Positions 17,480 through 42,103 of a stretch of 42,827 bases of DNA are shown piece after piece. The translations under genes were made by a program, and so were the position numbers. Numbering within the stretch: position 1 is the stretch's first letter; the number at the start of each line of letters is the position of its first letter. A model generated the notes under the pieces. The model was not told where the DNA came from and ran no database searches. It saw nothing but the letters and a program-made list of their open reading frames with translations. This DNA comes from a virus: UHGV virus genome UHGV-0011110. One strand, written 5' to 3'.

Positions 17480-17508
17480 AGTATAACACCTCCGTTACGA
17501 GGTGTCAA
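17480..17508 (-). promoter_or_regulatory. early promoter: TTGACA-17-TGtTATACT plus conserved leader
   Basis: Perfect -35, 17-bp spacer, extended -10. Leader TAATTCATAAGTTAAGAGGAGG shared with the other copies. Confidence 0.7.
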
Positions 17509-17978
17509 GTGTTTATATTTAATATTCTGAATCTTTTATTCTCACCACCCAGTTTATTTAGATTATTAAAGTATGCTGTATTTAGATTGAAAAACTGTGT
17601 CGCTTCAACGAGTGATTTAAATTCATATTCTTTATTCGTTGATTTATCAATCATAGTAATTGTAACTCTATGGTACTCCTTATTAATTGACTGCTCTAAT
17701 GTCGTAGCCCATCTTAAATTTTCAACACTATTGTCTATTCTATTACGATTAATATGATCAACAGTGGGTTTGTTATATGGATTAGCTATAAAAGCTTCTG
17801 CTACTAGACGGTGGACTTTCATGTTTTGATTTTTACTTCCGATGTGTACCATATGGTATCCGTAGGCATCCATACGATTTTTTAATGTCCTATGACGAGT
17901 AATGTTTCGTACCATACCTAGTGTTGATATGTTGTATTTATCACCATATGAATTAGTATACGGTAATATTTTAGTCAA
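17505..17978 (-). CDS. NUMOD4/HNH_3 homing endonuclease overlapping the polymerase 3' end
   Basis: HRLVAEAFI.NP.NKP.VDHINRNR.DN...NLRW.T motif. N-terminus aligns with the other HNH genes from TTG 17978, 3 nt before the polB stop. Confidence 0.65.
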   Translation of the reverse strand: MTKILPYTNSYGDKYNISTLGMVRNITRHRTLKNRMDAYGYHMVHIGSKNQNMKVHRLVAEAFIANPYNKPTVDHINRNRIDNSVENLRWATTLEQSINKEYHRVTITMIDKSTNKEYEFKSLVEATQFFNLNTAYFNNLNKLGGENKRFRILNINT

Positions 17979-20262
17979 TATAATTCTTGACTTCTGGGAA
18001 TGTATATCCAAGTTTTTTAAATTTACTATGAGCCTCCTCAAGTCTAACCCTCCATTCTGTACCTAGCCACAGGATCAGTAGATCTTCCACCTGATTGATA
18101 TAGTATTCTTTATCAATATCATCTAAAGTAATCCAACCTTCACCAATTGCCTCATTATCAATGGCATAATATTCAGGAGCATTAGCTAAACCTTTAGTAT
18201 ACGAATCATTACCAACGATAGTTGTACCTTCCTCTTCAATAACAGCTCCACGTTTTACTTTGAATATTTCAACCGCTTTTTTAGGGTCTTTTACTGCAAA
18301 CACACGATTTACTTTTTGTGCTTTCGTTTCATTACCATTCATATCACGTACTACAGTATCATCAAATGTGTATCCTGTCTTAGTAACCATTTGGAATTGG
18401 CGTAGTTCATCACACTCATTTATAAACTCTCTATAGTCTTTACCAGCAACTACATAATTAATGAACGCATTTGAAACAATTGCTTTAGAAACTTTCAATC
18501 CATTCGTTAGACCAATAGCACCTTTAAACTTCACGTTACCATTTGCTGTAACTGCCAAGTAATTATTTACGTCCTTCTGGAAAATAGCTTTAAATGGATC
18601 ATCATCTAAGGTGTACCCTGTCCGTTTCATCCAATCATTTGCAATCTCATCAATGGCTTTTTCATCTTCTTCACTAAATGGAATATAGTAGTGCGCGTCT
18701 GTGTTTGATTGAATAATAGTAGCATGGTCTTCAATCTTTTCTAGTAAATCCCACATTGCCATCTGCCCAGTAATACATACTAATAACCTCATACGTGGGT
18801 CATACAGTTTATTAAACTCAGCTCCCATTGCACCATATTTAGTGTTTAGAGGTAGTTTATAGCCATTAATCAATAACTTAGTTGGAATCTGAACACCTTT
18901 AATTTCAGTAAATTCTTTTTTAGAATACTTGGCTTCCATACGTTCATCTAATAACATTTGATAGATATGACGTTTGTCTTCTGGGATGTTTCTTGACAAG
19001 TAGTCAAATAGCACCATGGTATTAGGGTAAAGTGAGCCTACGTCACGTGCATGGAAGTTACCTACATGAATAAATGATTCCTTAGCTCCATGTATACCAC
19101 CTACCCCTAAAACCTCTGTCACGTCTCTACGTGGCACATCTAATGAAATACTGGCATGTCCTTTATCATTAGCTTCAAATTCATCTGTCATAAATGCCTC
19201 ACGTATGGTCTCTGACTCAATTTCAAACCCTTCTGGTAGTTCATACTTATCTAACTCGTCACCTCTATCAGGTGTCTTCTCAGCTCCTAATAATTCAGCA
19301 GTCAAGTTTGCGTTAGTCATTGACAGTGCCATTTTGTCTAAACCAAAGTATAAGGCAATCGCTGCCTTAGCTACTAACATGCCTATGTTTTGTTCAAAAC
19401 GTTTTTCAGTAGCTAATACATCATTTTTACAGTATAGTTCATTCAGTAATTGCTCTTCTTCTGTTAATTCTCTATCTAAATCAAAGTCTACCTCAGTTTC
19501 TTTAATGTTGATGCCTAAGAATGCACTATGCTCTTTCAAGCTGAATCCTCTATTGTCTTGATATAAATCCATTCCAAACAGTGGTGTTTTCTTAGTATCA
19601 AACATTTTATATACTAACGCTCTGTCATCACTTTCAATGATTGCTTTTGACACATGAAATGGGTTTTTGCCTTGTAAATAAGCACGCATGACATTTGAGT
19701 CATATGAATGTGAGTTATAACCTACAAACAACGAATCTCTATTCGCTAGATAGAACTTGCGTAAAGCGTCCAAATCATTATGAATGACTGTCCATTCTTT
19801 GGTGAAGTAATCTCTGAAAACAAATAAATTGTCTTTTTTAAATACTTCAATGTCATAAATATATATTGTTTGTTTTGTTAGTGCCTCATTCGGTTTCTCA
19901 GGCAATACGTCAATTACTGCTCCTCTTTGATTAATAGTTACATTTGGGAAACCATTGCTGTATTTTAGAGTAATCATCAACTGCTGTCCAACTTCTATCT
20001 TTTCCCACGTTTTCCAATCTTGCTTACGAAATTTCATAATATAAAATGTAGCGTCACGTCCATCATTTGTGCTACGTACTTTAATTTCTTTCATCTCTTT
20101 GCCTTTAGCAGATAAACGTTCCTCAGCTTTAATCACTACAACTTGATGAATCCCTTCAATCATTGGGTCAAAGCTCTTTCCGTTGCCTGCTAATGCAGAA
20201 AATATTTCTAATAGTTTAGATGCTAACTTTTCAGCACCTTGAAATTCTGCTATGTTTTTCAT
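17971..20262 (-). CDS. family B DNA polymerase with 3'-5' exonuclease
   Basis: Exo I DIE, Exo III YCKNDVLAT, motif A DVGSLYPNTM, motif B KLPLNTKYG, motif C-like SNTDA. Confidence 0.85.
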   Translation of the reverse strand: MKNIAEFQGAEKLASKLLEIFSALAGNGKSFDPMIEGIHQVVVIKAEERLSAKGKEMKEIKVRSTNDGRDATFYIMKFRKQDWKTWEKIEVGQQLMITLKYSNGFPNVTINQRGAVIDVLPEKPNEALTKQTIYIYDIEVFKKDNLFVFRDYFTKEWTVIHNDLDALRKFYLANRDSLFVGYNSHSYDSNVMRAYLQGKNPFHVSKAIIESDDRALVYKMFDTKKTPLFGMDLYQDNRGFSLKEHSAFLGINIKETEVDFDLDRELTEEEQLLNELYCKNDVLATEKRFEQNIGMLVAKAAIALYFGLDKMALSMTNANLTAELLGAEKTPDRGDELDKYELPEGFEIESETIREAFMTDEFEANDKGHASISLDVPRRDVTEVLGVGGIHGAKESFIHVGNFHARDVGSLYPNTMVLFDYLSRNIPEDKRHIYQMLLDERMEAKYSKKEFTEIKGVQIPTKLLINGYKLPLNTKYGAMGAEFNKLYDPRMRLLVCITGQMAMWDLLEKIEDHATIIQSNTDAHYYIPFSEEDEKAIDEIANDWMKRTGYTLDDDPFKAIFQKDVNNYLAVTANGNVKFKGAIGLTNGLKVSKAIVSNAFINYVVAGKDYREFINECDELRQFQMVTKTGYTFDDTVVRDMNGNETKAQKVNRVFAVKDPKKAVEIFKVKRGAVIEEEGTTIVGNDSYTKGLANAPEYYAIDNEAIGEGWITLDDIDKEYYINQVEDLLILWLGTEWRVRLEEAHSKFKKLGYTFPEVKNYID

Positions 20263-24290: not shown

Positions 24291-24764
24291 TTATACTAAT
24301 TTATTTCTATCTGCGTATGACGCTCCTTCAAGTTCCCAGAGTTCTCTACCAAGCTTATTAGCGGTAAGATAATCCTTTTTATCGCAAGCATTATTAATCT
24401 TAATAATAAGCTCATGTCGTTTAGGTTCAACACGTTTGCGTGCAGGGCGTGAAACACGTTCTTGTGATTCTTTTGGATTGATTGCATACCCAAGGTTAGT
24501 CCAGTGATTGTTTTGCACGTTACCATCCTTATAATACACATAGCTGCAATTATGTGGGTTGTATACAAACATTTCAGCAACCAGTGGGGCTATATAAAAC
24601 TTACGTGACTTTCTATGTGATCCATTTAGTACTACAAATTGTTTACCTGTCTTGTAGTCAATCTCTTCTGTTACATATTTACCTGAGTCAATATCCATAA
24701 CATGTCCTTCATTTGTAATAGAGTACTTATCATATGGTGGTGAAAGTTGTTCAAATTTAAGCAT
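24291..24764 (-). CDS. NUMOD4-containing HNH-like protein (degenerate HNH; first His replaced)
   Basis: N-terminal YxIxNxGxV pattern; APLVAEMFV.NP..., NNHWTNL. Confidence 0.45.
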   Translation of the reverse strand: MLKFEQLSPPYDKYSITNEGHVMDIDSGKYVTEEIDYKTGKQFVVLNGSHRKSRKFYIAPLVAEMFVYNPHNCSYVYYKDGNVQNNHWTNLGYAINPKESQERVSRPARKRVEPKRHELIIKINNACDKKDYLTANKLGRELWELEGASYADRNKLV

Positions 24765-25542: not shown

Positions 25543-26052
25543 TTAGTCCTCCTTATATTTAAAAGTATATCCTCCAACATGGTTACGTCTACCTTTAAGT
25601 AATTCACAAATTCCACCTGTTGATAATCCTAACAATCGTCCTGCTTCAGATAGACTACTATACGTATTGCCATTTGAACATATTATAGGTTTACTACGTG
25701 ACGTTTTACTTCTTTTAATACCTGTACCATGTTGTATATTATCAATATGTGATACCCATTCCAAATTGTTTATAGAATTATTAGCTTTGTTTTCATCAAT
25801 ATGGTTAACATCACTTAAATTTAGTTCATTATTTATGAAGTGTTTTGCCACTAATCGATGAACCCTGTAACATTTTCTTCCTCTTGAATTAACAACATTA
25901 ATATAATAATATCCACTAGTTTTATTCTTAAATGGTTTTAAAAGTCTATTTGTTTTAATATTTTTTATCCTACCTAAACTGCTCACTTGATAATTTGGGA
26001 AATCCTTAATCGTCCGCCATTCTTCGCAACTCGCGTTTTCTAACTGATTCAT
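25543..26052 (-). CDS. NUMOD4/HNH_3 homing endonuclease
   Basis: HRLVAKHFI.N......VNHIDENKANNSINNLEWVS. Confidence 0.75.
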   Translation of the reverse strand: MNQLENASCEEWRTIKDFPNYQVSSLGRIKNIKTNRLLKPFKNKTSGYYYINVVNSRGRKCYRVHRLVAKHFINNELNLSDVNHIDENKANNSINNLEWVSHIDNIQHGTGIKRSKTSRSKPIICSNGNTYSSLSEAGRLLGLSTGGICELLKGRRNHVGGYTFKYKED

Positions 26053-26746
26053 ACGTTCTCAATACCTCCTCCTCTGATAAGGGTGGATTGCAGCCAATCT
26101 GATTGACGTACATGCTCCACACACGCACCTCATCATGATTTAACCCAGTTGCAAATAACTTACCAATTTGAGTGGTGAGCCAAATATTTCGTCCACCTTC
26201 CCCACTACCTGCAATTATATCACCTAGCAAATTAGCTGTAAATTTTCTCTCTCTTTTCTTATTCTTTTTAGTAATTGATTTATCAGTAAACATTTCTAAC
26301 CATTTCTCAGGTAATTCTGCGACTTCCACATCACGCACTACTTCATAATACTTCCCATCAATTTGACTAGGTGGTGCTACTACGTAACGCCCATGAGTCT
26401 GAAAGTCAACGCCTTCTAGTTGAGTATGATTCTGAATAAATTGTGTGTCATTGTATTTTTCATCTAACTTGAAATAATAGTGTAATCCACCACTTGGGGT
26501 CTTAATGACTTGCGTTTTTGGTAGCGTAATGTCGTAAGTATCTAAGAACTCTTTCAAGTTACCAAGGCCATCTACTCCATTATGGTTGTCAATGTCTATG
26601 ACTGCAATACCACTAGCTGACCCAGTTAGTACACCAACGTTACCACCTTCTTGTACCCATTTTTGAATTAACTCTTCTGATTCTCCATTGAAAGCTCCAG
26701 CCACTAGTGGTGCTTTACCATTTTTCTTTAATCTTAATTCTTTCAT
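26006..26746 (-). CDS. primase-polymerase (PrimPol, bifunctional DNA primase/polymerase N-domain plus PriCT_1)
   Basis: VIDIDN, TPSGGLHYYF, VAPPS motifs; C-terminal GGRNIWLT..EEVLRTYESV. Confidence 0.75.
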   Translation of the reverse strand: MKELRLKKNGKAPLVAGAFNGESEELIQKWVQEGGNVGVLTGSASGIAVIDIDNHNGVDGLGNLKEFLDTYDITLPKTQVIKTPSGGLHYYFKLDEKYNDTQFIQNHTQLEGVDFQTHGRYVVAPPSQIDGKYYEVVRDVEVAELPEKWLEMFTDKSITKKNKKRERKFTANLLGDIIAGSGEGGRNIWLTTQIGKLFATGLNHDEVRVWSMYVNQIGCNPPLSEEEVLRTYESVRKRELRRMADD

Positions 26747-27004: not shown

Positions 27005-28301
27005 CACTTTCAATCATTTCATTTGTAAAGTCTTTTCCATTTGTAACTGTGTTAAAGATCTTTTTCTCAATTGGTGTATCTGGGACAATATGATAATACA
27101 GTGGCGTTTTCTCTTGTCCATGTCTATCAGTGCGCCCCTTTGCTTGTAAATACTCTGTAGAGCTTAAAGGCATTGAATTGAATACTGTCACATTACTAAT
27201 CACAAAATCGTTTATACCTGTTGAGGCTGACTTATATTGGGCTAGGACTACCCCATTTTCATTTTGTTTGAATGGTCTCAAATCTTTAACAGCACCATTG
27301 TACGTACCATATGGACGTTTCAGTTTGTCTAATAGTCTACCCAACATTAGTCCTTCCCACTTGTAGTTATAGAAGATTACTACACGCTCATTGTTATGTG
27401 TCTCAAGAATAGCTTCTAAGCGTTCAAAGGGTTCTTTGGATACTTGTTTATTGATTCCATATAGAAAACCATGACTAACTTGTCTTAATGAGTTAAAAAG
27501 TTTAGAACTGTTATCCAATTCAATCGTTTCTGGATTAAATGGCGCTGTTTCTGCTTCATAAATTCTATTCTTTTTCAGCTTGTTGTACATTGCTGGCTTC
27601 TTAGTTTTATAAACGTAATCTTGTGGTAAATAGCCTTTGTCACGCTTGTAGTTCACACTTGCTTCATTTATCATTTGCTGTAACAGGTGCTCATTCTGAT
27701 AGCCCACAATATCCATAAAACGCATTGACCCCATCTGTCTCAGTTGTTTTATCACAAATAGTTGTTCAAACTCTTTCTTAGGCTTTCTAAAGACATTTGC
27801 AATGTATAGTTGTGAATACCAATTCTCCAGTTTTCCATTGCTCACAGGGGTAGCTGTGCATAAATACGTATGTTTTGCTCTCTTAGATAGCTGCATAACA
27901 AACTTAGTTACTTTAGACTTGGATACACCAACTTTGTGAGATTCATCAATAATAATAAACGTGTCTTTGTCTACCCATTTCAATAACTCAGTCAAGCGCC
28001 ATGAGCTTTCAAAACTGATTGCAACATTCTCTGCTGTTTCTAACAGCTCTTTGTTTTTCTTTGTGCCTTTGTTGAGCGCTGTAATGTCAATATCAAACAC
28101 ATGTCCATCTTCCACAAAGTCTAACACTTTAGGTGCTAGACAGATCACTAATAACTTATTACACTTACTTTTCACATATGAACCAATACTCATGTAAGAT
28201 TTTCCAGTTCCAACGTCTGATAGGTTTAAAGGTTTAGTCTCAAAGTTTTCAATGGCTTCTTTCTGATACATGAAAAGTTCTATATTATTCTGCATATTCA
28301 A
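26988..28301 (-). CDS. SF2 helicase (SNF2/DEAD-like)
   Basis: Walker A DVGTGKS, DESH box, motif VI QAKGRTDRHGQ. Confidence 0.8.
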   Translation of the reverse strand: MNMQNNIELFMYQKEAIENFETKPLNLSDVGTGKSYMSIGSYVKSKCNKLLVICLAPKVLDFVEDGHVFDIDITALNKGTKKNKELLETAENVAISFESSWRLTELLKWVDKDTFIIIDESHKVGVSKSKVTKFVMQLSKRAKHTYLCTATPVSNGKLENWYSQLYIANVFRKPKKEFEQLFVIKQLRQMGSMRFMDIVGYQNEHLLQQMINEASVNYKRDKGYLPQDYVYKTKKPAMYNKLKKNRIYEAETAPFNPETIELDNSSKLFNSLRQVSHGFLYGINKQVSKEPFERLEAILETHNNERVVIFYNYKWEGLMLGRLLDKLKRPYGTYNGAVKDLRPFKQNENGVVLAQYKSASTGINDFVISNVTVFNSMPLSSTEYLQAKGRTDRHGQEKTPLYYHIVPDTPIEKKIFNTVTNGKDFTNEMIESVDKYS

Positions 28302-28755
28302 AAATCAATCCTTTTATAGTTTTTCTTCTCTTTGTTAGAACAGAAGATATTGATTGAGGTATTAAATTTAAATCTTTTGCTGCGCTTTTTACACTGTCAT
28401 AGTGTTTACCTGTATTTTTACATATAATTCTCTTTGAATATGACAACCCCCTAGTTCCATAATTGATGTTATATTCATTGGTACACCATTCTAAGTTTTC
28501 AACAATATTATTTCTTTTGTTTTCATCAATATGATTGACTTGTGCGTAATTGTTTGGGTTATCAATAAAAGTTGTAGCTACTATTCTATGCACTAATGTT
28601 TTTGTTACATTTCCATTTTTACACAGACTTACCGCCTCATATCCTCTACCTACAATATTGTGTTTCAATATTCTTCCGTTTCTCATAACTCTTCCTAAGT
28701 TACTCACTTGATATAATCCTTCATAATCTTTAATATCTTTCCAAATTTCTTTCAT
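28285..28755 (-). CDS. NUMOD4/HNH_3 homing endonuclease
   Basis: MKEIWKDIKDYEGLYQVSNLGRV; HRIVATTFI.NP...VNHIDENKRNN.ENLEW. Confidence 0.75.
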   Translation of the reverse strand: MKEIWKDIKDYEGLYQVSNLGRVMRNGRILKHNIVGRGYEAVSLCKNGNVTKTLVHRIVATTFIDNPNNYAQVNHIDENKRNNIVENLEWCTNEYNINYGTRGLSYSKRIICKNTGKHYDSVKSAAKDLNLIPQSISSVLTKRRKTIKGLIFEYAE

Positions 28756-31343: not shown

Positions 31344-31568
31344 TTATTCAATTATTTTTACAACAGATACAATGTGTTCTACTCTAAATACACTATCATA
31401 CTGGGTTGGTGTTCTACCTGGTTTTTCTTCACCCTCATACTCAAAACGCAATACTCCTTGACCTTTTGTTTTTACAACAGTATTCCAATATTTTTCTTGT
31501 AGATCATTATTTGTTCTGACTACAAATGGTGTATCACTATTTACTGTGTATACGTAATATTTATTCAT
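31344..31568 (-). CDS. hypothetical protein
   Basis: ORF. Confidence 0.35.
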   Translation of the reverse strand: MNKYYVYTVNSDTPFVVRTNNDLQEKYWNTVVKTKGQGVLRFEYEGEEKPGRTPTQYDSVFRVEHIVSVVKIIE

Positions 31569-31579
31569 TCTAATTCCTC

Positions 31580-33166
31580 CTATTGTACATCATTGAAAAT
31601 GTTCGTGTACTCTGTGCCAGCCAGTGCGTTCATTAAATATGGTCTGATTGACTCGTTGTCTCCATTACGTGCGATTTTTAGACCAGTTAATACACGTGCT
31701 TTACTTGTGCGTTTTTCTTCAAAACCTTGCTTCAACAATAATTCTTTCATGGTGCGCCAGTTCATTGACTTGTTGATATTATTTTCTTTAGTGTACACAT
31801 TAAAAATATTCTTCAGTAGTGTTAGGTTAACAGTACCTTCCTCATCTTCCACAATGACTGGTACTTCACTCAAGAACTCTTTGGATGGATCATTTGATTC
31901 AATATACGCTTTCTTAAATTCAATCATGTCTTCTGTTTCTGTGAATGGGTTTTCACCATTTGCACCTGTGTCTAAAATCTTTTTGAATTGTTGAATACAG
32001 AACCATGCGAATTTACCTAGTTGCTCTTTTGATTCCCGTTCCTCACGTTGTTTGTTGAACTCATTAATGCGTTGACGTGCTTCAGGTGTGTCTAGGTTTG
32101 TATTAAAGTTCAAAATCAAAATACGTCTATACCAACCGTTTGTGCGATCGTTAAATGATGGTAGTTCATTCATTGAAAACATTAATTTTGCATAGTTAGT
32201 AAAACTAAAAGCATCTTTACCTTTTTTCTCAGCATGAATGGCATCTAATCCACCTGAAAGTTTTTTCAATGTTTCAGTACCTTTTACAAAGTTTGCACTA
32301 GAATCAGCTTCAAAGTTTAACAACTTATGGTGTAATGAAGCTTTGTCAAAACGATTGTTTTTGTCTGCTAAACTATCTAAGCCAACAGCACTACTGTTTT
32401 CAAAACCAATTAATTTGCTCATAATAAAACCACCAACATACGATTTACCGTTTGATCCATTACCTAGTAAATAAAGTATTGATTGATATTTGTACTCTCT
32501 ATAATACATGTACCCAATGTACTCATATAATGTCTGAGCTTGGTCTTTCAGCAAATAGTCAATCCATTGTTTAGCTAATAACTCGTCTGTTTCATCTGTT
32601 TTAATCAATGGATATGGTAATTGCAACGTATGATAGTCTTCCAATTTGGTTTCACGAATTTCATTCGTTCTAAAGTCATATGTCCCATTCTCAAAAGCAA
32701 TAATGTTTGGATTAGGATTATCACCTAATGGCGCATGTTCACCACGTGTCATAGAGCGATTCGCCAACTCAGGGGCTAATTTCTTCATTTCTTTACGGAT
32801 TTCATTCCCAAATTCTGGATTTCTAAATTGTGGTGTAAACTTTGGCGCTAGAATGTTTTCAAAATACCAATCTGAATATTTGTAACTACCTAGATTTACC
32901 TCAGACCAGATACGTGTGTCTGCATTGTAGACGTATGGTGCATTTAGGTTGGGATGAGCATACACATAGGCTAATTGGTTAAACTTTTCAATAAATAATT
33001 CCTGTTGGATCTCAAATTTTGGTTGTGTACCATCTTTACCTCCGTAATACATTCGTCCTAGCTCTGAATTGAAGTCCACAAACTCCTCACTTGGAAAGTG
33101 TTTATTTGAAACTGGTAGTAACTCCTCAACTGGTGCTGAATAATCTATTTTCCTTAGTTCATTCAT
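31580..33166 (-). CDS. SF3 helicase / primase-helicase (D5_N plus P4-family primase C-terminal domain)
   Basis: NIIAFENGTYDFRT (D5_N); Walker A LLGNGSNGKSY. Confidence 0.75.
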   Translation of the reverse strand: MNELRKIDYSAPVEELLPVSNKHFPSEEFVDFNSELGRMYYGGKDGTQPKFEIQQELFIEKFNQLAYVYAHPNLNAPYVYNADTRIWSEVNLGSYKYSDWYFENILAPKFTPQFRNPEFGNEIRKEMKKLAPELANRSMTRGEHAPLGDNPNPNIIAFENGTYDFRTNEIRETKLEDYHTLQLPYPLIKTDETDELLAKQWIDYLLKDQAQTLYEYIGYMYYREYKYQSILYLLGNGSNGKSYVGGFIMSKLIGFENSSAVGLDSLADKNNRFDKASLHHKLLNFEADSSANFVKGTETLKKLSGGLDAIHAEKKGKDAFSFTNYAKLMFSMNELPSFNDRTNGWYRRILILNFNTNLDTPEARQRINEFNKQREERESKEQLGKFAWFCIQQFKKILDTGANGENPFTETEDMIEFKKAYIESNDPSKEFLSEVPVIVEDEEGTVNLTLLKNIFNVYTKENNINKSMNWRTMKELLLKQGFEEKRTSKARVLTGLKIARNGDNESIRPYLMNALAGTEYTNIFNDVQ

Positions 33167-34733: not shown

Positions 34734-35024
34734 CTATTTGTCTTTGTTTATATAATAATTGTAAGTCACATTTCCTTGTTTGTCAAGTTCCTTTTTCAAT
34801 CGTTTGTTTTCGTTGATTAGTTGAGCGTTACGTTCTTTCAAGTTTTTATTTTCTTCAAAGATTCGTCTAGCGTCTTCCACAAATTGTTCTTTCTGATATT
34901 TATGAAAGTCTCTACTTCGCTTTAGCTCTTCTATTCTATTCTCACCGTTTTTACCTACAATATTTATACCTAAGTATATTATTAGTAGAAACCACGCAAT
35001 TAATAATATTATACTTCCTATCAT
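34734..35024 (-). CDS. N-terminally anchored coiled-coil membrane protein
   Basis: One TM helix followed by a K/E-rich heptad region. Confidence 0.4.
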   Translation of the reverse strand: MIGSIILLIAWFLLIIYLGINIVGKNGENRIEELKRSRDFHKYQKEQFVEDARRIFEENKNLKERNAQLINENKRLKKELDKQGNVTYNYYINKDK

Positions 35025-35053
35025 TTTACTTCCTCCTCTTTATGCTGTGATTA

Positions 35054-35269
35054 TTATTTCCATTCATCTCTAGTTTCAATTAACATTGCGATTAGTGACA
35101 CATTTAATGATACTGTAAATGCTACTATTACAATCAGTAGTGGTATTGTTGTTAACAGTGAGTATTTTAGTATGTCAATAATTATTACAACAGCAACTAC
35201 ATCAAGACATACTATGCATAGAATTAACCCTATAACTAGTGTTCTTAATATTTTGTCTTCTTTTTTCAT
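35054..35269 (-). CDS. two-TM small membrane protein (first gene of the leftward early operon)
   Basis: Immediately downstream of the promoter at 35301..35329. Confidence 0.45.
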   Translation of the reverse strand: MKKEDKILRTLVIGLILCIVCLDVVAVVIIIDILKYSLLTTIPLLIVIVAFTVSLNVSLIAMLIETRDEWK

Positions 35270-35300
35270 TTTAGTTCCTCCTCTTTATCTTATGAATTAA

Positions 35301-35329
35301 GTATAGCACGTTTAGAGACCATGGTCAAC
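35301..35329 (-). promoter_or_regulatory. early promoter TTGACC-17-TGcTATACT plus conserved leader
   Basis: Read directly. Confidence 0.7.
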
Positions 35330-35394
35330 TGTTTTATTTAAAAATGTCACTAATTTTCCTGTTTTGTCACTATATGACATAGAATTGACGTTTT

Positions 35395-35685
35395 TAAAAT
35401 CGCTGTAACCCTTGATACTCTAAGGAATAGACCAGTTTAGTGACAAAATGACAAAAAAAGCGCCATACTCTTTATATATATATATATATATATACTACAT
35501 AACCATGTAATAATTATATTTATTATTTAATATATAAAATATTTTGTCATTTTGTCACTATAAAAATAAGAATGTAGATATACCAAGGGCTACAGCGATT
35601 TTAGGTGTCAAAATTAGTGACAAAATGGTGACAAAAATAAGCTAGTTTGTGACAAAATGACACTTTTAGGCTGACTTTTTGTCAC
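35395..35685. repeat. nested inverted repeats and iteron-like array with a central (TA)10
   Basis: Outer inverted repeat at 35395..35411 and 35587..35602; inner perfect inverted repeat at 35440..35456 and 35540..35556. (TA)10 at 35473..35492. About 10 GTGACAAAAT-type sites in both orientations at 35345, 35361, 35440, 35450, 35540, 35549, 35606, 35617, 35628, 35649 and 35676. Confidence 0.85.
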
Positions 35686-35730
35686 AAATTGGTTTACTTG
35701 ATACTTCAACACACAATCCCTTATCTATGA

Positions 35731-35741
35731 TATAATTAGGA
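35731..35741 (+). promoter_or_regulatory. extended -10 promoter TATGATATAAT for the rightward operon
   Basis: Read directly; same 11-mer at ~3202 (+), ~37330 (+) and ~21990 (-). Confidence 0.5.
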
Positions 35742-35757
35742 TAAAGGAGGAGAGTCT

Positions 35758-35946
35758 ATGAAGGAAACGCTAAAAGCATTACTTGGAGTTGGTTTTCTAG
35801 TCCTACTGTTAATTGGGTATGGATATATCGCTATCTATCTTGGGATTGAACTACCATATCAATTATGGATTAATGGAGAGTGGGGTTTTGCAATTGCACA
35901 GGCCGTTATTGTGTGGAGCTGGTTATTAGGAGGTAAACGTAAATGA
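35758..35946 (+). CDS. small two-TM membrane protein
   Basis: AAAGGAGGAG 6 nt before ATG. Confidence 0.5.
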   Translation: MKETLKALLGVGFLVLLLIGYGYIAIYLGIELPYQLWINGEWGFAIAQAVIVWSWLLGGKRK

Positions 35947-36128
35947 AAAAGATTGAAATCACTTTAAATGATGAAACTGGCGCATATTGTATTGAAGAAA
36001 CATTTGATAATTATCAACAAGGCTTAAAGACGTATGATTTAGACGAAGCCTTACTATATCTTGAGGATAGAATGGAGAAATTGACTTATGAAAACAGACA
36101 AACAATTACTACAATTAACAAAGACTGA
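35943..36128 (+). CDS. hypothetical protein
   Basis: ATGA overlap with the upstream gene. Confidence 0.45.
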   Translation: MKKIEITLNDETGAYCIEETFDNYQQGLKTYDLDEALLYLEDRMEKLTYENRQTITTINKD

Positions 36129-36454: not shown

Positions 36455-36613
36455 ATGCCATATATGTATTGCAACCATGCAGGCTGTAATGAAACAGTTA
36501 AGCTACCAGCACAATACTGTGCTAAACATCAACCAGCAAAGCTACCTGAATCACTTAAAGTAGATGTGAATAAAGTTAGCAAGACTATGAACACAAAGAA
36601 GACTACTAAATAA
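36455..36613 (+). CDS. 52-aa zinc-ribbon protein, paralog of the N-terminus of the downstream HNH
   Basis: MPYMYCNHAGCNETVKLPAQYCAKHQ versus MPQRICAEPTCRNKVELPERYCEQHR. Confidence 0.35.
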   Translation: MPYMYCNHAGCNETVKLPAQYCAKHQPAKLPESLKVDVNKVSKTMNTKKTTK

Positions 36614-36656: not shown

Positions 36657-37049
36657 ATGCCACAAAGGATATGTGCTGAACCAACATGTCGTAATAAAGT
36701 AGAGTTACCAGAACGATACTGTGAACAACACAGAGGACATAATGATAAGCAGTACAACAAACATGTAAGAACGAATGACTTCAATAAGAAGTATAATGAC
36801 TTCTATCATAGTACTCAATGGACTAAGACTCGTAAGACTAAGCTAATGGAGCAACCTCTATGCGAGGTATGTGCTAGGCAAGGACGTATGACTAAGGCAG
36901 ACATGGTTCACCATATTATTGAATTAAGAAGTCCAAACGGATGGAAACATAGATTAGATATGAATAATTTAGAATCAATCTGTTACAGTTGCCATAATAA
37001 AGAGGAGCATAGATACAGTTGGAAAAATGGTGGTAGGGAACAGCGTTAA
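36657..37049 (+). CDS. terminase-associated HNH endonuclease (zinc-ribbon plus HNH; HK97 gp74-like role)
   Basis: CxxC..CxxH N-terminal ribbon; HHIIELRSPNGW...NLESICYSCHNKEEH HNH core. Sits upstream of the P27 TerS. Confidence 0.7.
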   Translation: MPQRICAEPTCRNKVELPERYCEQHRGHNDKQYNKHVRTNDFNKKYNDFYHSTQWTKTRKTKLMEQPLCEVCARQGRMTKADMVHHIIELRSPNGWKHRLDMNNLESICYSCHNKEEHRYSWKNGGREQR

Positions 37050-37187
37050 ATCAACAAACACGCAGACAAAATTATTTTTAGGGAGACCCAAAATATTTTT
37101 ACCCCCCTACCTTTTTTGTCCAGCCTAATCGCTGATGACTCTTCTTCACACGAATTTCTAAAAATGAACTTTCAAAAACGCCCTTTT

Positions 37188-37320
37188 CCCCTCATAAACG
37201 TGATTAAAACCTGGTTTCTTGTGTTGAAAATAAAGAAATAACACTATATATTGTATGTTATTTCTCTTATACGATTCCTCCCCCTATAAACATGATTGAA
37301 CCATGGTTTCTTTACACAGG
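37188..37320. repeat. two ~38-bp direct repeats (37188..37226 and 37281..37320), each containing an AACC(N)GGTT palindrome
   Basis: CCCCTcATAAACgTGATTaAAaCCTGGTTTCTT versus CCCCTATAAACaTGATTgAACCATGGTTTCTT. Confidence 0.8.
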
Positions 37321-37398
37321 ATTCTTTTTATATGATATAATAAATTATATAAGGGATTTTTGTTTAACTCAACAAACTAAAGTAAGGGAGGTAGAACA

Positions 37399-37647: not shown

Positions 37648-38154
37648 ATGAAAGAAATTTGGAAAGAATTAGACGATTTACCAAACTATGAAATCAGTAA
37701 CATGGGTAGGTTGAGAAATAAAAATACATTGAGAATTTTAAAAACAAGAATTTCAAAACTTGGCTATGAGCAAATAACAATCACGTATGGCGGCGAAAAA
37801 TATTTCAGAACAATACACAGGCTTGTAGCTAAAGCATTCTTAATTAACCCAAATAACAAACCTGAGGTTAATCACATTGACGAAAATAAACTTAATAACC
37901 GTGTTAGCAATTTAGAGTGGGTGACTAGAAAAGAAAATTTAAATCACGGCACTTGGAAGCTTAAAAAGAGACAATCGCGAGATAAGGCCATTTATGCTTA
38001 CAAAGACGGTGAAGTACTTGAGTTCCCTTCAACTAAAAGTTGCGCTCAAACACTTGGGTTGATTCCAACAAATGTTACTCAAGCTATTCGTGTAAAGAAT
38101 AAAAACGGAAGTAGTAAAACACTAAAAGGCTACACATTCAAATACAAGGAGTGA
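37648..38154 (+). CDS. NUMOD4/HNH_3 homing endonuclease
   Basis: MKEIWKELDDLPNYEISNMGRL; HRLVAKAFLINPNNKPEVNHIDENKLNN..NLEWVT. Confidence 0.75.
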   Translation: MKEIWKELDDLPNYEISNMGRLRNKNTLRILKTRISKLGYEQITITYGGEKYFRTIHRLVAKAFLINPNNKPEVNHIDENKLNNRVSNLEWVTRKENLNHGTWKLKKRQSRDKAIYAYKDGEVLEFPSTKSCAQTLGLIPTNVTQAIRVKNKNGSSKTLKGYTFKYKE

Positions 38155-38625: not shown

Positions 38626-38804
38626 CCTACACAAAAATAAAGAGTTGTGGTATAATAAAGATTGAACAATCGTGGACGGCGCACGTAAACGACCGCTCGC
38701 CACAGTATCTGGCTGATGTGTGATAGTATACCCTACTTGACGACATGCACACTAAAGTGGATATATACTTAACGTAGGGCGTGTATATTCGCAGATACTA
38801 ACCT

Positions 38805-38836
38805 CCCACTAGTCTAGCTAACTAGTGGGTATTTTT
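38805..38836 (+). terminator. rho-independent terminator immediately before the terL promoter
   Basis: CCCACTAG/CTAGTGGG stem, 8-nt loop, TATTTTT. Confidence 0.65.
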
Positions 38837-38849
38837 ATGCTATAATATA
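38837..38849 (+). promoter_or_regulatory. late-type promoter TTTTTATGCTATAAT
   Basis: Same T-run plus TGcTATAAT found at 4506, 9047, 12251 (variant TGtTATAAT), 25256 and ~3877. Confidence 0.5.
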
Positions 38850-38878
38850 AATGACTAGCATAAAAGGAGGATATCTAC

Positions 38879-40654
38879 ATGACGGATTATGTAGCTGATT
38901 ATATCAATCTAATTGAAACAGGTTGGATTGAAGGACGTAAATATATAGTAGAAGATGACTATTACAAACCTATTAAAGTTAAAATCAAAGTGGGTAAAAA
39001 AATACAGAAAGCAATTGAACGACACCAGAAGGATATAGAGCGCTCAAAAGACCCCAAGTATCCATATGTGTATAGACCAGAGGAAGCTATAGCACCAGTT
39101 AGATTTCTTGAAATGCTACCTGACCCTAAATCACGAAAAACAACAAAGCTAGCACACTTCCAGAAATTTATTGTTGGACTATTATATGGATGGCGTAAAA
39201 AGAAAGATAATACTAGACGTTTTAGAAAAGCATATATCTCACTAGCACGTAAGAACGGTAAATCACTACTAGTATCAGGAATCGCATTATATGAGTTTTT
39301 ATTTGGTAAGAACCCAGCAGCTAGTCGTCAAGTAGTAGCCGCAGCAAATACTAAGGAGCAGGCAGGTATTGTGTTTAGAATGCTTAAGTCTCAGCTAACC
39401 GCACTACGTAGCGTTTCAAAAGAAGTTAAGAAACGAACAACTGTGCGTAGATATGATATTGAAGCTAGTGACGAGTCAACCGTAAAGCCACTATCAAGTG
39501 ATGCTGACACACTAGACGGACTAGATGTGTTATGTGGTATTTTAGATGAATATGGTGAAGCTAAAGATGATGCAATTATCCAAGTATTAGAATCATCACA
39601 ATCGCAACAATTAGAGGGATTAATATTAATAATTTCAACAACTACTAAAAATCTAAATGGGCCTATGCACTCTGTAGAGTATCCATTTGTTGAAAAACTA
39701 CTTGATGAAGAGGTTAAAGGTGATGCCTATCTTGCGTTATGTTGGGAAATGGACTCACTGAGTGAAGTAGATGATGAAGAAAACTGGATTAAATCAAACC
39801 CATTGTTTGAAATACCAGAAGCGTATGACTCAATGATGGAACATAAGCGCAACTCACTTGATGAATACAAAGGTAAAATGGACTTATCAGGTTGGCTAAC
39901 AAAAGAAATGAATTTTTGGGTACAATCATCTAAAGATAGTTTTGTAACCAAAGAAGAGTGGGATGCAGTTAAAGCACCAAAGAAATACGATATTAAAGGA
40001 CGTAAAGTATATATTGGCTTAGATATTGCCAGAACCTCAGACATGACTGCAGTATCATGGATTATTCCAATTGAGGAAGAACACAAATTACTGCTGGACA
40101 CACATGGTTTTGTGTCATCAGTAGGAGGTATTGATCACAAACAGTCAATTGATAAAATACCTTATAGACAATATGAGTCAATGAACCTCATTCATATTTC
40201 ACAGCGTGAAGATGGCTTAATTGACACAGAAGAAATGTGTGATTGGATACGTGATTTTATAGACTATAACGAGTTACAGTTGATAGGTATTTACTATGAC
40301 CCATTCATGATGGATAAGGCGTTAATTAATTTAAGTAAAACATATCCTAAAAAACTAATTGAAGTACCTCAGAAAATTAACTATTTATCCTCACCAACTA
40401 GAGCTTTGAGGGAACTCATTCGCAGAGATGAAGTTATCCACACAAATAACCCTCTTTTGAATCGTGCAGCCTATAATGCCATGATTAAAGAGTATAACGA
40501 CAGTGTGGCAATAGATAAAGGTATGAACAGAAACAAAATCGATGCTCTTGATGCTGTGATAAATGCCATGAGTGATGCACAATACCATGATTTTGATGCA
40601 CCAACCTTGCAAGATTTACTAGATAATGGAGAGTTTGGCTTTGGGTATGCTTAA
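38879..40654 (+). CDS. terL: terminase large subunit
   Basis: Walker A-like ISLARKNGKS, nuclease-domain acidic residues; size and position. Confidence 0.8.
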   Translation: MTDYVADYINLIETGWIEGRKYIVEDDYYKPIKVKIKVGKKIQKAIERHQKDIERSKDPKYPYVYRPEEAIAPVRFLEMLPDPKSRKTTKLAHFQKFIVGLLYGWRKKKDNTRRFRKAYISLARKNGKSLLVSGIALYEFLFGKNPAASRQVVAAANTKEQAGIVFRMLKSQLTALRSVSKEVKKRTTVRRYDIEASDESTVKPLSSDADTLDGLDVLCGILDEYGEAKDDAIIQVLESSQSQQLEGLILIISTTTKNLNGPMHSVEYPFVEKLLDEEVKGDAYLALCWEMDSLSEVDDEENWIKSNPLFEIPEAYDSMMEHKRNSLDEYKGKMDLSGWLTKEMNFWVQSSKDSFVTKEEWDAVKAPKKYDIKGRKVYIGLDIARTSDMTAVSWIIPIEEEHKLLLDTHGFVSSVGGIDHKQSIDKIPYRQYESMNLIHISQREDGLIDTEEMCDWIRDFIDYNELQLIGIYYDPFMMDKALINLSKTYPKKLIEVPQKINYLSSPTRALRELIRRDEVIHTNNPLLNRAAYNAMIKEYNDSVAIDKGMNRNKIDALDAVINAMSDAQYHDFDAPTLQDLLDNGEFGFGYA

Positions 40655-40723
40655 TATGCATACCCTTTTGCTAATATTTGTGTTAAAATAGAGATAGAAA
40701 TATCGCAAAAGGAGCGTGAAAAC

Positions 40724-40897
40724 ATGAAATTTGTTGCGGTTATTGTAGCTGTTTTATATATAATTAGCATGGTATTTATTGCTTTAGCTGCTTTTTTAGT
40801 ATCAAACACACTTGGTTTACTCGCATGTGGTATAGGGTTCATGATTCCGTCAATCGTACTATACTATGAAGCCACAAAATCAGAGGGAAGGGGGTAA
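40724..40897 (+). CDS. 57-aa two-TM membrane protein between terL and portal
   Basis: AAAGGAG 9 nt before ATG. MKFVAVIVAVLYIISMVFIALAAFLVSNTLGLLACGIGFMIPSIVLYYEATKSEGRG. Below the track cutoff. Confidence 0.4.
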   Translation: MKFVAVIVAVLYIISMVFIALAAFLVSNTLGLLACGIGFMIPSIVLYYEATKSEGRG

Positions 40898-40903
40898 TAA
40901 TTA

Positions 40904-42103
40904 ATGGGATTATTTATAAACAATGGTACACCAGTTACAGAACAACAGTTCATAGATTATATTAATACTGGTACAATATACAGTACCAATTTTACAGGAC
41001 TAAAAGCTCTGACAAACTCAGACATCTACACAGGTGTAAATATCATCGCTGGTGACATTGCGCAAAGTCCATTCAAACCTGTTAACAATAGCACTGTAGA
41101 TGAATCACTGTTAACATTATTAAACAAAGAACCAAAAACTAATCAATCACACTACACTATGATGTATGCCGTAGTGTCAAACCTAATTTTAACTGGAAAT
41201 GCCTACATTTTAATCCATAGAAATGATGATAACTCAGTTAAAGAGTTGGAGTTTGTGGAAACACAACAAGTGAACGTCATCAGAGACCTTGTTACAGGTG
41301 AATATAGATATGAAGTTAATATGCCGTATGGTAACATTATGTATAAATGTACTCCAAACGATATTTTACATTTCAAATTAACAACCACTGATGGGTGGCT
41401 AGGTCGCTCACCATTACTATCACTAAATGACGAGATAGCACTACAAACCAATGGGTTGAAAGTACTAAACAATTTCTTTTCAAAAGGTGTATTCTCAGGC
41501 GGTATTCTTAAATTATTGAATGGTACTGTGAACAACCAAACAAAAGCAAAAATTAGACAAGACTTTGAGACAGTCAACGGGGCTGGAGGAACCATTGTTC
41601 TTGATGAAACACAAGACTTTACTGAAAACAAAATCAACACAGAAGTATTGAAACTAATCCAAGCTAACAAATTTAGCACACAACAAATTGCTAAAGTATT
41701 GGGTATTCCAGTAAGTAGATTTGGACAAGAACTAGTCAACTCATCTGACACCAGTCAGAATGATATTTATATTGCTAGCACAATTGCTATGTATGAGTCA
41801 TCAATTTGTGATGAATTAAATCTAAAACTAGGTGTTAATTTAGAATTAGACTTATCTAAACTACGCCAAGATACAAAAGAGGATAGACTACGTAGAATAG
41901 CAGAAGGTAAAGTTAAATCTGAATTCGCACAAGCAGTGACAGTTAACGATGCACGCACCTACCTTGGTTTCCAAGAGATTGACAACGGACAACAATTACT
42001 AGGACAAATGAAAAACAATACACAAAATACAAATGAACAGGATGTGAAAGTGAATGACAAAGAACATGGAGATACGAGCACTACAGACACTGGAGAAGAG
42101 TGA
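40904..42103 (+). CDS. portal protein (HK97 family)
   Basis: Size and position after terL; followed by the prohead protease. Confidence 0.75.
   Translation: MGLFINNGTPVTEQQFIDYINTGTIYSTNFTGLKALTNSDIYTGVNIIAGDIAQSPFKPVNNSTVDESLLTLLNKEPKTNQSHYTMMYAVVSNLILTGNAYILIHRNDDNSVKELEFVETQQVNVIRDLVTGEYRYEVNMPYGNIMYKCTPNDILHFKLTTTDGWLGRSPLLSLNDEIALQTNGLKVLNNFFSKGVFSGGILKLLNGTVNNQTKAKIRQDFETVNGAGGTIVLDETQDFTENKINTEVLKLIQANKFSTQQIAKVLGIPVSRFGQELVNSSDTSQNDIYIASTIAMYESSICDELNLKLGVNLELDLSKLRQDTKEDRLRRIAEGKVKSEFAQAVTVNDARTYLGFQEIDNGQQLLGQMKNNTQNTNEQDVKVNDKEHGDTSTTDTGEE

Follow-up and report, generated by a model that had tools for sequence, protein, structure and literature searches.

Repeats, an AT-rich centre and a co-varying helicase point to an iteron-type replication origin in an Enterococcus siphophage genome

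The window analysed here is the whole 42,827-nt stretch of UHGV virus genome UHGV-0011110, a complete or near-complete genome (~42.8 kb) of an Enterococcus siphophage. The Enterococcus faecium phages dArtagnan, Aramis, KEN20 and RG1 match it at ~85 % identity across half of its length, and the Efquatrovirus phages are more distant. According to the map of open reading frames (ORFs), the structural and lysis genes are transcribed rightward, and an early/replication arm runs leftward from ~35.27 kb to ~16.5 kb and encodes an SF3 helicase, an SNF2-type helicase, PrimPol and a family-B polymerase. Rightward from 35758 lie a few small genes, an HNH endonuclease and the terminase genes. Between the leftward arm and the small rightward genes there is a divergent non-coding gap, and the element considered in this work, an array of short repeats (iterons) placed symmetrically around an AT-rich centre, fills most of it. 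Gaps of 450-580 bp are found at the equivalent place in all relatives examined. The two ORFs flanking the gap encode 71 aa and 62 aa and are both hydrophobic. No helix-turn-helix (HTH), Cro or repressor domain was identified by Pfam among 20 neighbouring early ORFs, and an earlier note on this DNA had said the same of the two flanking genes.

The repeats share a five-letter core, TGAC[AG], which is present in 14 copies in the gap against 1.6 expected. The longer form RTGACR (R, A or G) is present in 12 copies against 0.7 expected (P = 7e-12). The exact word GTGACAAAA occurs eight times in the window, with seven of the copies within 35362-35685, and when one mismatch at most is allowed, 10 of the 29 matches in the window fall into the same interval. 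We found no second cluster of cores elsewhere in the window: no other 150-bp segment holds more than three RTGACR sites, against seven and five inside the element. Read from left to right, the cores are oriented - - + + in the left outer group, + + in the left inner pair, - - in the right inner pair on the other side of the centre, and - + + + + - in the right outer array, and the centre of symmetry lies at ~35499. The repeats, inverted repeats and TA tract listed in the earlier note are all present with coordinate corrections of 1-2 nt. The inner inverted repeat is indeed perfect but is 19 nt long instead of 17, its right arm having been placed 2 nt too far left. The outer inverted repeat was there too, with its extent now corrected to 23 nt, and the TA microsatellite has eleven units and not ten.

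Regarding the promoters, CCCTTATCTATGATATAAT at the predicted rightward promoter is invariant in all relatives that carry a flank of the window type. The -35 and -10 hexamers of both main promoters are free of cores; at the left promoter the nearest core is 17 bp upstream of the -35, at the right one 46 bp upstream of the -10. The features of the element and the genes connected with it are collected in Table 1.

Table 1. Positions of the element, its parts and the associated replication genes (window coordinates unless a relative is named)
Feature	Position	Strand	Description
Divergent intergenic region between leftward early/replication arm and rightward small early genes	35270..35757	.	ORF map; 488 bp
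Leftward early promoter	35300..35328	-	TTGACC-17-TATACT with TG; consensus scan 10/12; conserved in close-relative alignment; predicted
Left outer iteron group	35345..35390	.	TGACR cores 35345(-), 35365(-), 35375(+), 35386(+); invariant or nearly so in close-relative alignment
Outer inverted repeat, left arm AAAATCGCTGTAACCCTTGATA	35395..35417	+	23 nt, 91 % complementary; overlaps CCCTTG-N7-AAGG box
Left inner iteron pair TAGTGACAAAATGACAAAA	35438..35456	+	Cores 35441/35449, 8 bp apart, centre-facing
AT-rich centre, candidate DNA-unwinding element	35465..35545	.	35470-35540 is 91.5 % A+T; contains (TA)11
(TA)11 tract	35473-35494		Inside AT-rich centre
Right inner iteron pair TTTTGTCATTTTGTCACTA	35542..35560	-	Cores 35545/35553; perfect 19-nt inverted copy of left inner pair
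Outer inverted repeat, right arm TACCAAGGGCTACAGCGATTTTA	35581..35603	-	23 nt, 91 % complementary to left arm
Right outer iteron array	35605..35685	.	Cores 35606(-), 35618(+), 35629(+), 35650(+), 35658(+), 35680(-); conserved in close relatives
Rightward promoter	35728..35736	+	Extended -10 TGaTATAAT; read from sequence; predicted
SF3 self-loading helicase gene, proposed initiator	31580..33166	-	528 aa; D5_N, SF3 ATPase (DUF5906), C-terminal winged helix
Helicase C-terminal winged helix	31583-31954		Residues ~405-528
PrimPol gene, presumed origin primase	26006..26746	-	93 % identical to dArtagnan DAR_43 ('DNA primase-polymerase')
Family-B DNA polymerase gene, presumed replicase	17971..20262	-	92 % identical to dArtagnan DAR_28 ('B-family DNA polymerase')
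CCCTTG box in relatives	L010 ~1934; L012 ~1718; L016 ~39753; L040 ~3684; L055; L058; L066-L068

The gap is better conserved than its surroundings, with 90 % identity in BUCT630, EF36P1, RG1 and dArtagnan against ~77-79 % for the wider match. In the alignment of close relatives the repeat blocks are almost invariant, and in the left inner pair only one G/A site varies. The most variable part is the centre (columns ~213-268). Invariant repeats around a variable AT-rich centre argue that selection maintains the repeat sequences and the base composition of the centre and does not act on the microsatellite. In SSBHU and GEC9 the left half of the gap is not homologous to that of the window, yet it carries GTGACAAAA.

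In distant relatives the repeats also flank an AT-rich centre in the same divergent gap, and the repeated word differs. Loss of the repeats from related phages, which the earlier note had named as evidence against an origin, was not what we observed: the layout recurs in over 40 related Enterococcus phages, although the word changes. The word is ATGACA(A/T) in EFm5 and Aramis, TGAC(G/A) in DELF1, and (A/G)AGAACAC in the Efquatrovirus Max, and IME-EFm1 has GGTACA, GTGTACC and GTGTCC. Metagenomic relatives add TAGACA together with ATGACA, (G/T)(T/A)GACA, ACTACA(C/T), and GTAACA(AAAA), the last in 11-12 copies that have opposite orientation on the two sides. We also scanned 46 IMG/VR loci, in an unbiased way, for their densest repeated 7-mers, and in most of them the top repeat window was located upstream of the SF3 helicase gene. 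The scan recovered at least nine different words, all containing ACA, with GCGTTACA, GCATAACA and GTGGAACA as further ones. Several loci were uninformative, either because too little sequence was available upstream of the helicase gene or because of a low score (L027, 4.7 kb upstream). In locus L054 the top window turned out to be a coding tandem repeat, (ATGAAGAAT)x6 at 2567-2630, inside a small ORF encoding HEEYEEY..., and was discarded as an origin; the true gap of this locus was located by direct reading of the sequence. Using the helicase we also found four ENA/Logan contigs (L063 and L066-L068), which carry similar arrays in divergent gaps, again read directly, and the P0011 and P0004 contigs, which lack the upstream gap.

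The centre of the element is the least stable duplex of the whole window. Nearest-neighbour duplex energies place 35465-35545 at the minimum at window sizes of 40, 60, 80 and 100 bp (z = 4.4-5.3), and at 80 bp the centre has -72.2 kcal/mol against -81.9 kcal/mol for the runner-up site. The equivalent centre ranks first genome-wide in dArtagnan, Aramis and DELF1 (in DELF1 at 60 bp), although the central sequences of these three phages cannot be aligned with that of the window. A melting minimum that is kept in unalignable centres indicates that composition and not sequence is under selection. The (TA)11 tract itself is unique to this phage, as close relatives have TATATATA at that position and then unrelated AT-rich sequence. 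It could be a length-variable tract modulating the ease of origin melting. The earlier note had singled out the TA repeat, but it is phage-specific and relatives share AT-richness alone.

We then characterised the SF3 helicase. Pfam recognised only D5_N and DUF5906, the SF3 ATPase, in the protein. The sole sequence match in the PDB was PriRep5 (7OLA/7OM0) of SaPI5, a Staphylococcus aureus pathogenicity island (SaPI), with E = 2.4e-10 in phmmer, at an identity of only ~17 %. The AlphaFold2 model had a mean predicted local distance difference test score of 83.8, and the top Foldseek matches of this model were again the PriRep5 7OLA chains (E = 4e-17, template modelling score 0.53-0.64). The alignments covered 398-440 columns for 7OLA chains in which the C-terminal domain is built and 347-380 for those without it. 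In the predicted structure the C-terminal domain is a winged helix resembling the origin-binding domain of phage P4. A homologue search with the C-terminal domain alone returned two proteins, and the full-length helicase was used as the query instead.

The repeated word follows the type of helicase. The window, dArtagnan, Aramis and DELF1 have helicases of 96-97 % identity, and RTGACR is enriched in all four gaps, with 12, 13, 10 and 6 copies against ~1 expected. In IME-EFm1 and Max the helicase is 29-32 % identical and RTGACR is not enriched (one copy and none). The case of IME-EFm1 (L013) is particularly clear, because its PolB, PrimPol and small terminase are 92 %, 90 % and 99 % identical to those of the window but its SF3 helicase only 29 %. 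The repeats of this phage are of the GGTAC/GTGTCC type, and its helicase gene has moved almost beside the gap (38650-41190). In L068 the helicase gene is adjacent to the gap as well. Between these extremes there is a graded series of relatives, in which helicases 82 %, 79 %, 73 % (L068) and 58 % (L063) identical to that of the window go with TAGACA plus ATGACA, (G/T)(T/A)GACA, ACTACAY (Y, C or T) and GTAACA, respectively. In L068 and L063 the identity is lowest at residues 475-500, the wing and recognition helix.

The same trend was seen within Efquatrovirus, where helicases of different word classes diverge mainly in their last ~100 residues (0.66-0.82 identity against more than 0.9 elsewhere), and where two C-terminal domains only a few substitutions apart pair with GCGTTACA and GCATAACA. 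Coarse clustering of the C-terminal domains at 60 % identity suggested no association, but the finer analysis localised the divergence to these last ~100 residues. When all ORFs were compared, the helicase alone among the widely shared ones was uniform within its class (99 %, 13 loci) and lower against every other class. Judged from these sequence comparisons, the protein that binds the repeats is most likely the phage SF3 helicase, mainly via its C-terminal domain. The 'unidentified early protein' that had been suggested as the binder would then probably be the very helicase which the earlier note had listed among the phage's own replication proteins.

One part of the element does not change with the helicase. 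The CCCTTG-N7-AAGG box at 35409-35425 accompanies the iterons in almost every related phage, independently of the type of helicase or iteron. It always lies within ~25 bp of the iterons of the given phage, and often inside a CGCTGTA...TACAGCG palindrome that corresponds to the outer inverted repeat of the window. The box is hairpin-like, with a conserved stem and a variable loop, and the loop ATACTCT of the window group resembles the reverse complement of the GAGAGT found in the others. A box that is constant across helicase types is probably not a site for the helicase.

We consider the element to be an origin of bidirectional replication of the type that combines iterons with a self-loading SF3 helicase, and give this reading a probability of about 0.74. 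An iteron-type origin with an AT-rich unwinding element had already been suggested in the earlier note, and it gains support from the anatomy, the melting minimum, the conserved layout, the co-variation of word and helicase and the homology of the helicase. We infer the following course of events. The helicase would be expressed from the leftward early promoter, and its C-terminal winged helix would recognise the (A/G)TGAC(A/G) iterons. The inward-facing inner pairs would seat one hexamer on either side of the core, and binding would melt the AT-rich DNA between them. The two helicase rings would then move apart, with PrimPol priming and the family-B polymerase extending, and the concatemers formed later would be cleaved at cos, ~1.6 kb rightward. 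The outer arrays would add affinity or cooperativity, and they may also modulate early transcription, since they abut both early promoters. A 'switch' function, the other option in the earlier note, is thus possible as a secondary role.

Several observations weigh against this interpretation. The C-terminal domain is not the only divergent segment of the helicase, as the first ~60 residues diverge strongly too in all four relatives (0.30-0.60 identity). Aramis and DELF1 share the helicase of the window, but their repeats differ outside the 5-6-bp core. Loci L035, L040 and L052 carry a dominant extra word, GTCTACACTTTTT, and their helicase is identical to that of phages with AGAACAC only; L054 has four GTGTAC words like those of IME-EFm1 plus a second family, GGTTCAT. 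Word and helicase are therefore strongly but not perfectly associated, with relatedness as a partial confounder. In IME-EFm1 and Max the AT-rich minimum is weak and does not rank first. The element lies 2.2 kb upstream of the 5′ end of the helicase gene (0.4-9 kb upstream in relatives), not immediately downstream as in SaPIs. We ran the GC-skew analysis proposed in the earlier note and did find a switch at ~35 kb, but it coincides with the change of transcription direction and is uninformative. The site doubles as the early promoter region, and sequence alone cannot separate a regulatory role from that of an origin. We found no experimental mapping of an origin for these or related phages in the literature.

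Regarding the GTCTACACTTTTT loci, an extra gene of 181 aa is present at the edge of the gap in L035, L040 (4132-4677) and L052 and in none of the 11 loci without those repeats, of which there are nine copies. The L040 protein had no match in Pfam and no significant match to the helicase family profile (E = 0.089). This gene plausibly explains the GTCTACACTTTTT exception, and its product may be a second DNA-binding factor at the origin region.

Among other explanations we considered a purely regulatory array, through which a phage protein, the helicase or another early one, would control both divergent promoters in an early-to-middle switch without any origin. The repeats do fill the space between the promoters to within 17 bp of the left -35, possible internal promoters overlap the inner iterons, and the relatives with a second repeat family and an extra gap-adjacent gene show that the region can be acted on by more than one DNA-binding factor. 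However, the cores avoid all -35 and -10 hexamers of the main promoters, and no HTH, Cro or repressor is detectable by Pfam in the 20 early ORFs. Such an array would also leave unexplained the genome-wide melting minimum in phages with unrelated centres, as well as the tracking between the word and the winged helix of a replicative SF3 helicase, and we regard it as unlikely. A lambdoid operator or immunity region was rejected on the same absence of HTH proteins, on the hydrophobic nature of the flanking ORFs and on the lack of cores on the promoter hexamers, which bears out the doubt already expressed about an operator set.

A transcription-primed origin has a precedent in lactococcal phage c2, whose replication is reported to depend on a transcript from the early promoter instead of iterons and a phage SF3 initiator that binds them. 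Phage c2 is likewise lytic, a cos siphophage with a low-GC Gram-positive host, and its origin is situated in non-coding DNA flanked by divergent early and late promoters, so that the location matches. A transcript that the host RNA polymerase starts within the element would prime replication, and the repeats would mainly be -35-like or structural elements, in place of the iterons and SF3 initiator proposed here. The iteron of the window read in reverse is TTGTCA, which is -35-like, and promoter-like pairs are present on the inner arms at 35558..35529 and 35550..35522 (10/12) and at 35446..35417. Promoter-like sites number 15 against 7.6 expected, and TGATATAAT is found at the position equivalent to 35417-35422 in SSBHU, EFm5, Aramis and DELF1. 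What makes this explanation quite improbable is that words such as GTAACA, CTACAC, AGAACAC, GGTACA and GCGTTACA are not -35-like and the layout of those relatives is nevertheless unchanged. Moreover, a phage with its own PrimPol and an initiator-type helicase does not need priming by RNA polymerase. The notion that the repeats are additional sigma-70 promoters was dropped, as they are -35-like only in the word class of the window and not in relatives.

The nested inverted repeats might also form a long DNA cruciform or hairpin, or a structured non-coding RNA. The 209-nt core folds as single-stranded DNA at -38.7 kcal/mol (z = -9.3 against shuffles), but any inverted repeat yields such a score. 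In a comparison of five phages, however, outer-stem substitutions affect one side only and disrupt pairing, and neither long stem shows compensatory changes, with a covariation term that is unfavourable (+2.32). The Rfam scan of 35000-36000 returned no family at E <= 1, and no terminator-like site was found. We see very little chance that the element is of this nature. Last, a packaging site (cos or pac) could be suspected in a repeat-rich non-coding region ~2.5 kb upstream of the small terminase gene. Experimental mapping in IME-EFm1 and IME-EF4 placed their cohesive ends, which are 9-nt 3′ overhangs, a short way downstream of the HNH gene (PMC4445525). Alignment with the ends of IME-EFm1 places the homologous cos junction of the window at ~37130-37138, with the predicted 9-nt overhang CGCTGATGA ~80 bp downstream of the HNH gene. 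This is 1.6 kb away from the element, and the published ends together with the alignment rule out packaging with near certainty.

Starting again from the origin reading, a more far-reaching version can be proposed, which we find rather doubtful as a whole. The element would be a dual-function hub in which the helicase bound to the outer arrays couples origin firing to the shut-off or rebalancing of early transcription, as SV40 T antigen does. The CCCTTG-N7-AAGG / CGCTGTA box, constant across swaps of helicase and iterons, would be a separate site at which a conserved factor, for instance PrimPol, loads or primes. The series of iterons and winged helices (GTGACA, TAGACA, CTACAY, GTAACA, GGTACA, AGAACAC, GCGTTACA and GCATAACA) would constitute a readable recognition code.

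Some neighbouring features deserve a mention. PrimPol homologues in L063 and L066-68 contain the Pfam domains Prim-Pol and PriCT_1. A 74-aa ORF directly downstream of the helicase gene (31344-31568) is 97 % identical in dArtagnan and 86 % in Aramis, but only ~32 % in both DELF1 and IME-EFm1, and it does not track the helicase type. ORFs resembling HNH or homing endonucleases are scattered in the replication arm and near the terminase genes (17505-18041, 24291-24764, 25543-26052, 28285-28755 and 37648-38154). Relatives often have the best match to such an ORF at a non-equivalent position and with only 35-48 % identity, a pattern that suggests mobile insertions differing between phages. A 52-aa ORF (36455-36613) and the adjacent HNH endonuclease (36657-37049) have a common N-terminal Cys/His motif, MPYMYCNHAGCNETVKLPAQYCAKHQ and MPQRICAEPTCRNKVELPERYCEQHR, and duplication of a zinc-ribbon module may have given rise to the small ORF. 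Rightward of the predicted cos, at ~37195-37345, a promoter-like block AAAC[G/A]TGATT[A/G]AA[A]CC[A]TGGTTTCTT... is present twice. The second block ends with the extended -10 TGATATAAT, resembling the rightward early promoter, and the pair may be a promoter for the packaging and late genes.

Turning to known systems, the Reps of SaPIs are self-loading initiator helicases with a C-terminal winged helix that binds penta- or hexanucleotide iterons, and their origins contain 6-12 iterons around an AT-rich region, at least two per side in opposite directions (PMC9371898). Loading presumably involves two hexamers, one per side, and neither binding nor melting requires ATP (PMC9371898). The helicase of the window is closest to PriRep5 in sequence and structure and has the C-terminal winged helix. 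The iterons, 14 in number, have a short penta- or hexanucleotide core, at least two per side are oppositely oriented around a core of 91 % A+T, and the iteron specificity varies with the C-terminal domain. The differences concern mainly the arrangement. The element belongs to a lytic phage genome and not to a chromosomal island, it is situated in the divergent early promoter gap and not directly behind the helicase gene, and the primase is a separate PrimPol gene 4.8 kb from the helicase gene, neither fused nor adjacent to it. It also has additional nested symmetry in the outer inverted repeat and the conserved CCCTTG box. The element would work like a SaPI origin without the SaPI gene organisation.

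The alpha protein of phage P4 unites primase, SF3 helicase and winged-helix origin-binding domain in one polypeptide (PDB 1KA8 for the latter domain), and P4 has a second iteron cluster, crr, distant from ori. The helicase of the window belongs to the same D5_N/SF3 family, is annotated as 'P4 family primase', and the iterons likewise lie beside an AT-rich segment. However, no primase domain was detected by Pfam in the 528-aa helicase, PrimPol being a separate gene, the window has no distant second cluster equivalent to crr, and the iteron sequence is not the same. Similar principles are known from the core origins of SV40/polyomaviruses and papillomaviruses, where an SF3 initiator (large T antigen or E1) binds inverted sites of pentanucleotide type by an AT-rich tract and acts according to a double-hexamer model. 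The SV40-type origin lies between divergent early and late promoters, and binding of the initiator also regulates early transcription. The SF3 initiator, the inverted sites at an AT-rich tract, the double-hexamer model and the position between promoters are common to both, but in T antigen and E1 the origin-binding domain has another fold and is N-terminal to the helicase. These viruses have eukaryotic hosts, and outside the SF3 core no sequence relationship is detectable.

A related proposal exists for the sister genus. For the Efquatrovirus Abitsa (2026, sequence analysis only), an origin has been proposed near one genome end, 'at the expected genomic locus', where seven 10-bp iterons surround an AT-rich region and a PriRep5-like helicase would initiate (PMC13517437). 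The genome plan is the same and so, by inference, is the locus, the equivalent gap having been examined in the Efquatrovirus Max and not in Abitsa itself. A PriRep5-like helicase and iterons of ~10 bp around an AT-rich region are common to both, and this layout is visible in the gap of Max. The helicase, however, is only ~32 % identical to that of the window, the AGAACAC-type word is unrelated to GTGACA, and the AT-rich centre of Max is much less extreme. The co-variation, melting and structural tests belong to the present analysis, and PMC13517437 reports none of them. The type of origin is thus already known and was anticipated for the sister genus, and the element is not a new kind of system.

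What the window would add is the extension of the self-loading helicase origin of SaPIs and P4 from satellites to a large group of lytic phages, at a place between divergent early promoters that recalls the small DNA viruses of eukaryotes. The ~42-kb siphophages of E. faecium and Enterococcus faecalis are in development as therapy against vancomycin-resistant enterococci. A defined origin and its cognate initiator would be targets for engineering, such as minimal replicons, phage-dependent plasmids and resistance based on origin decoys. With their compact natural series the phages would also help in learning how iterons of 5-6 bp are read by a winged helix. Finally, helicase and iterons appear to be exchanged together, which helps to explain modular exchange between co-infecting phages.

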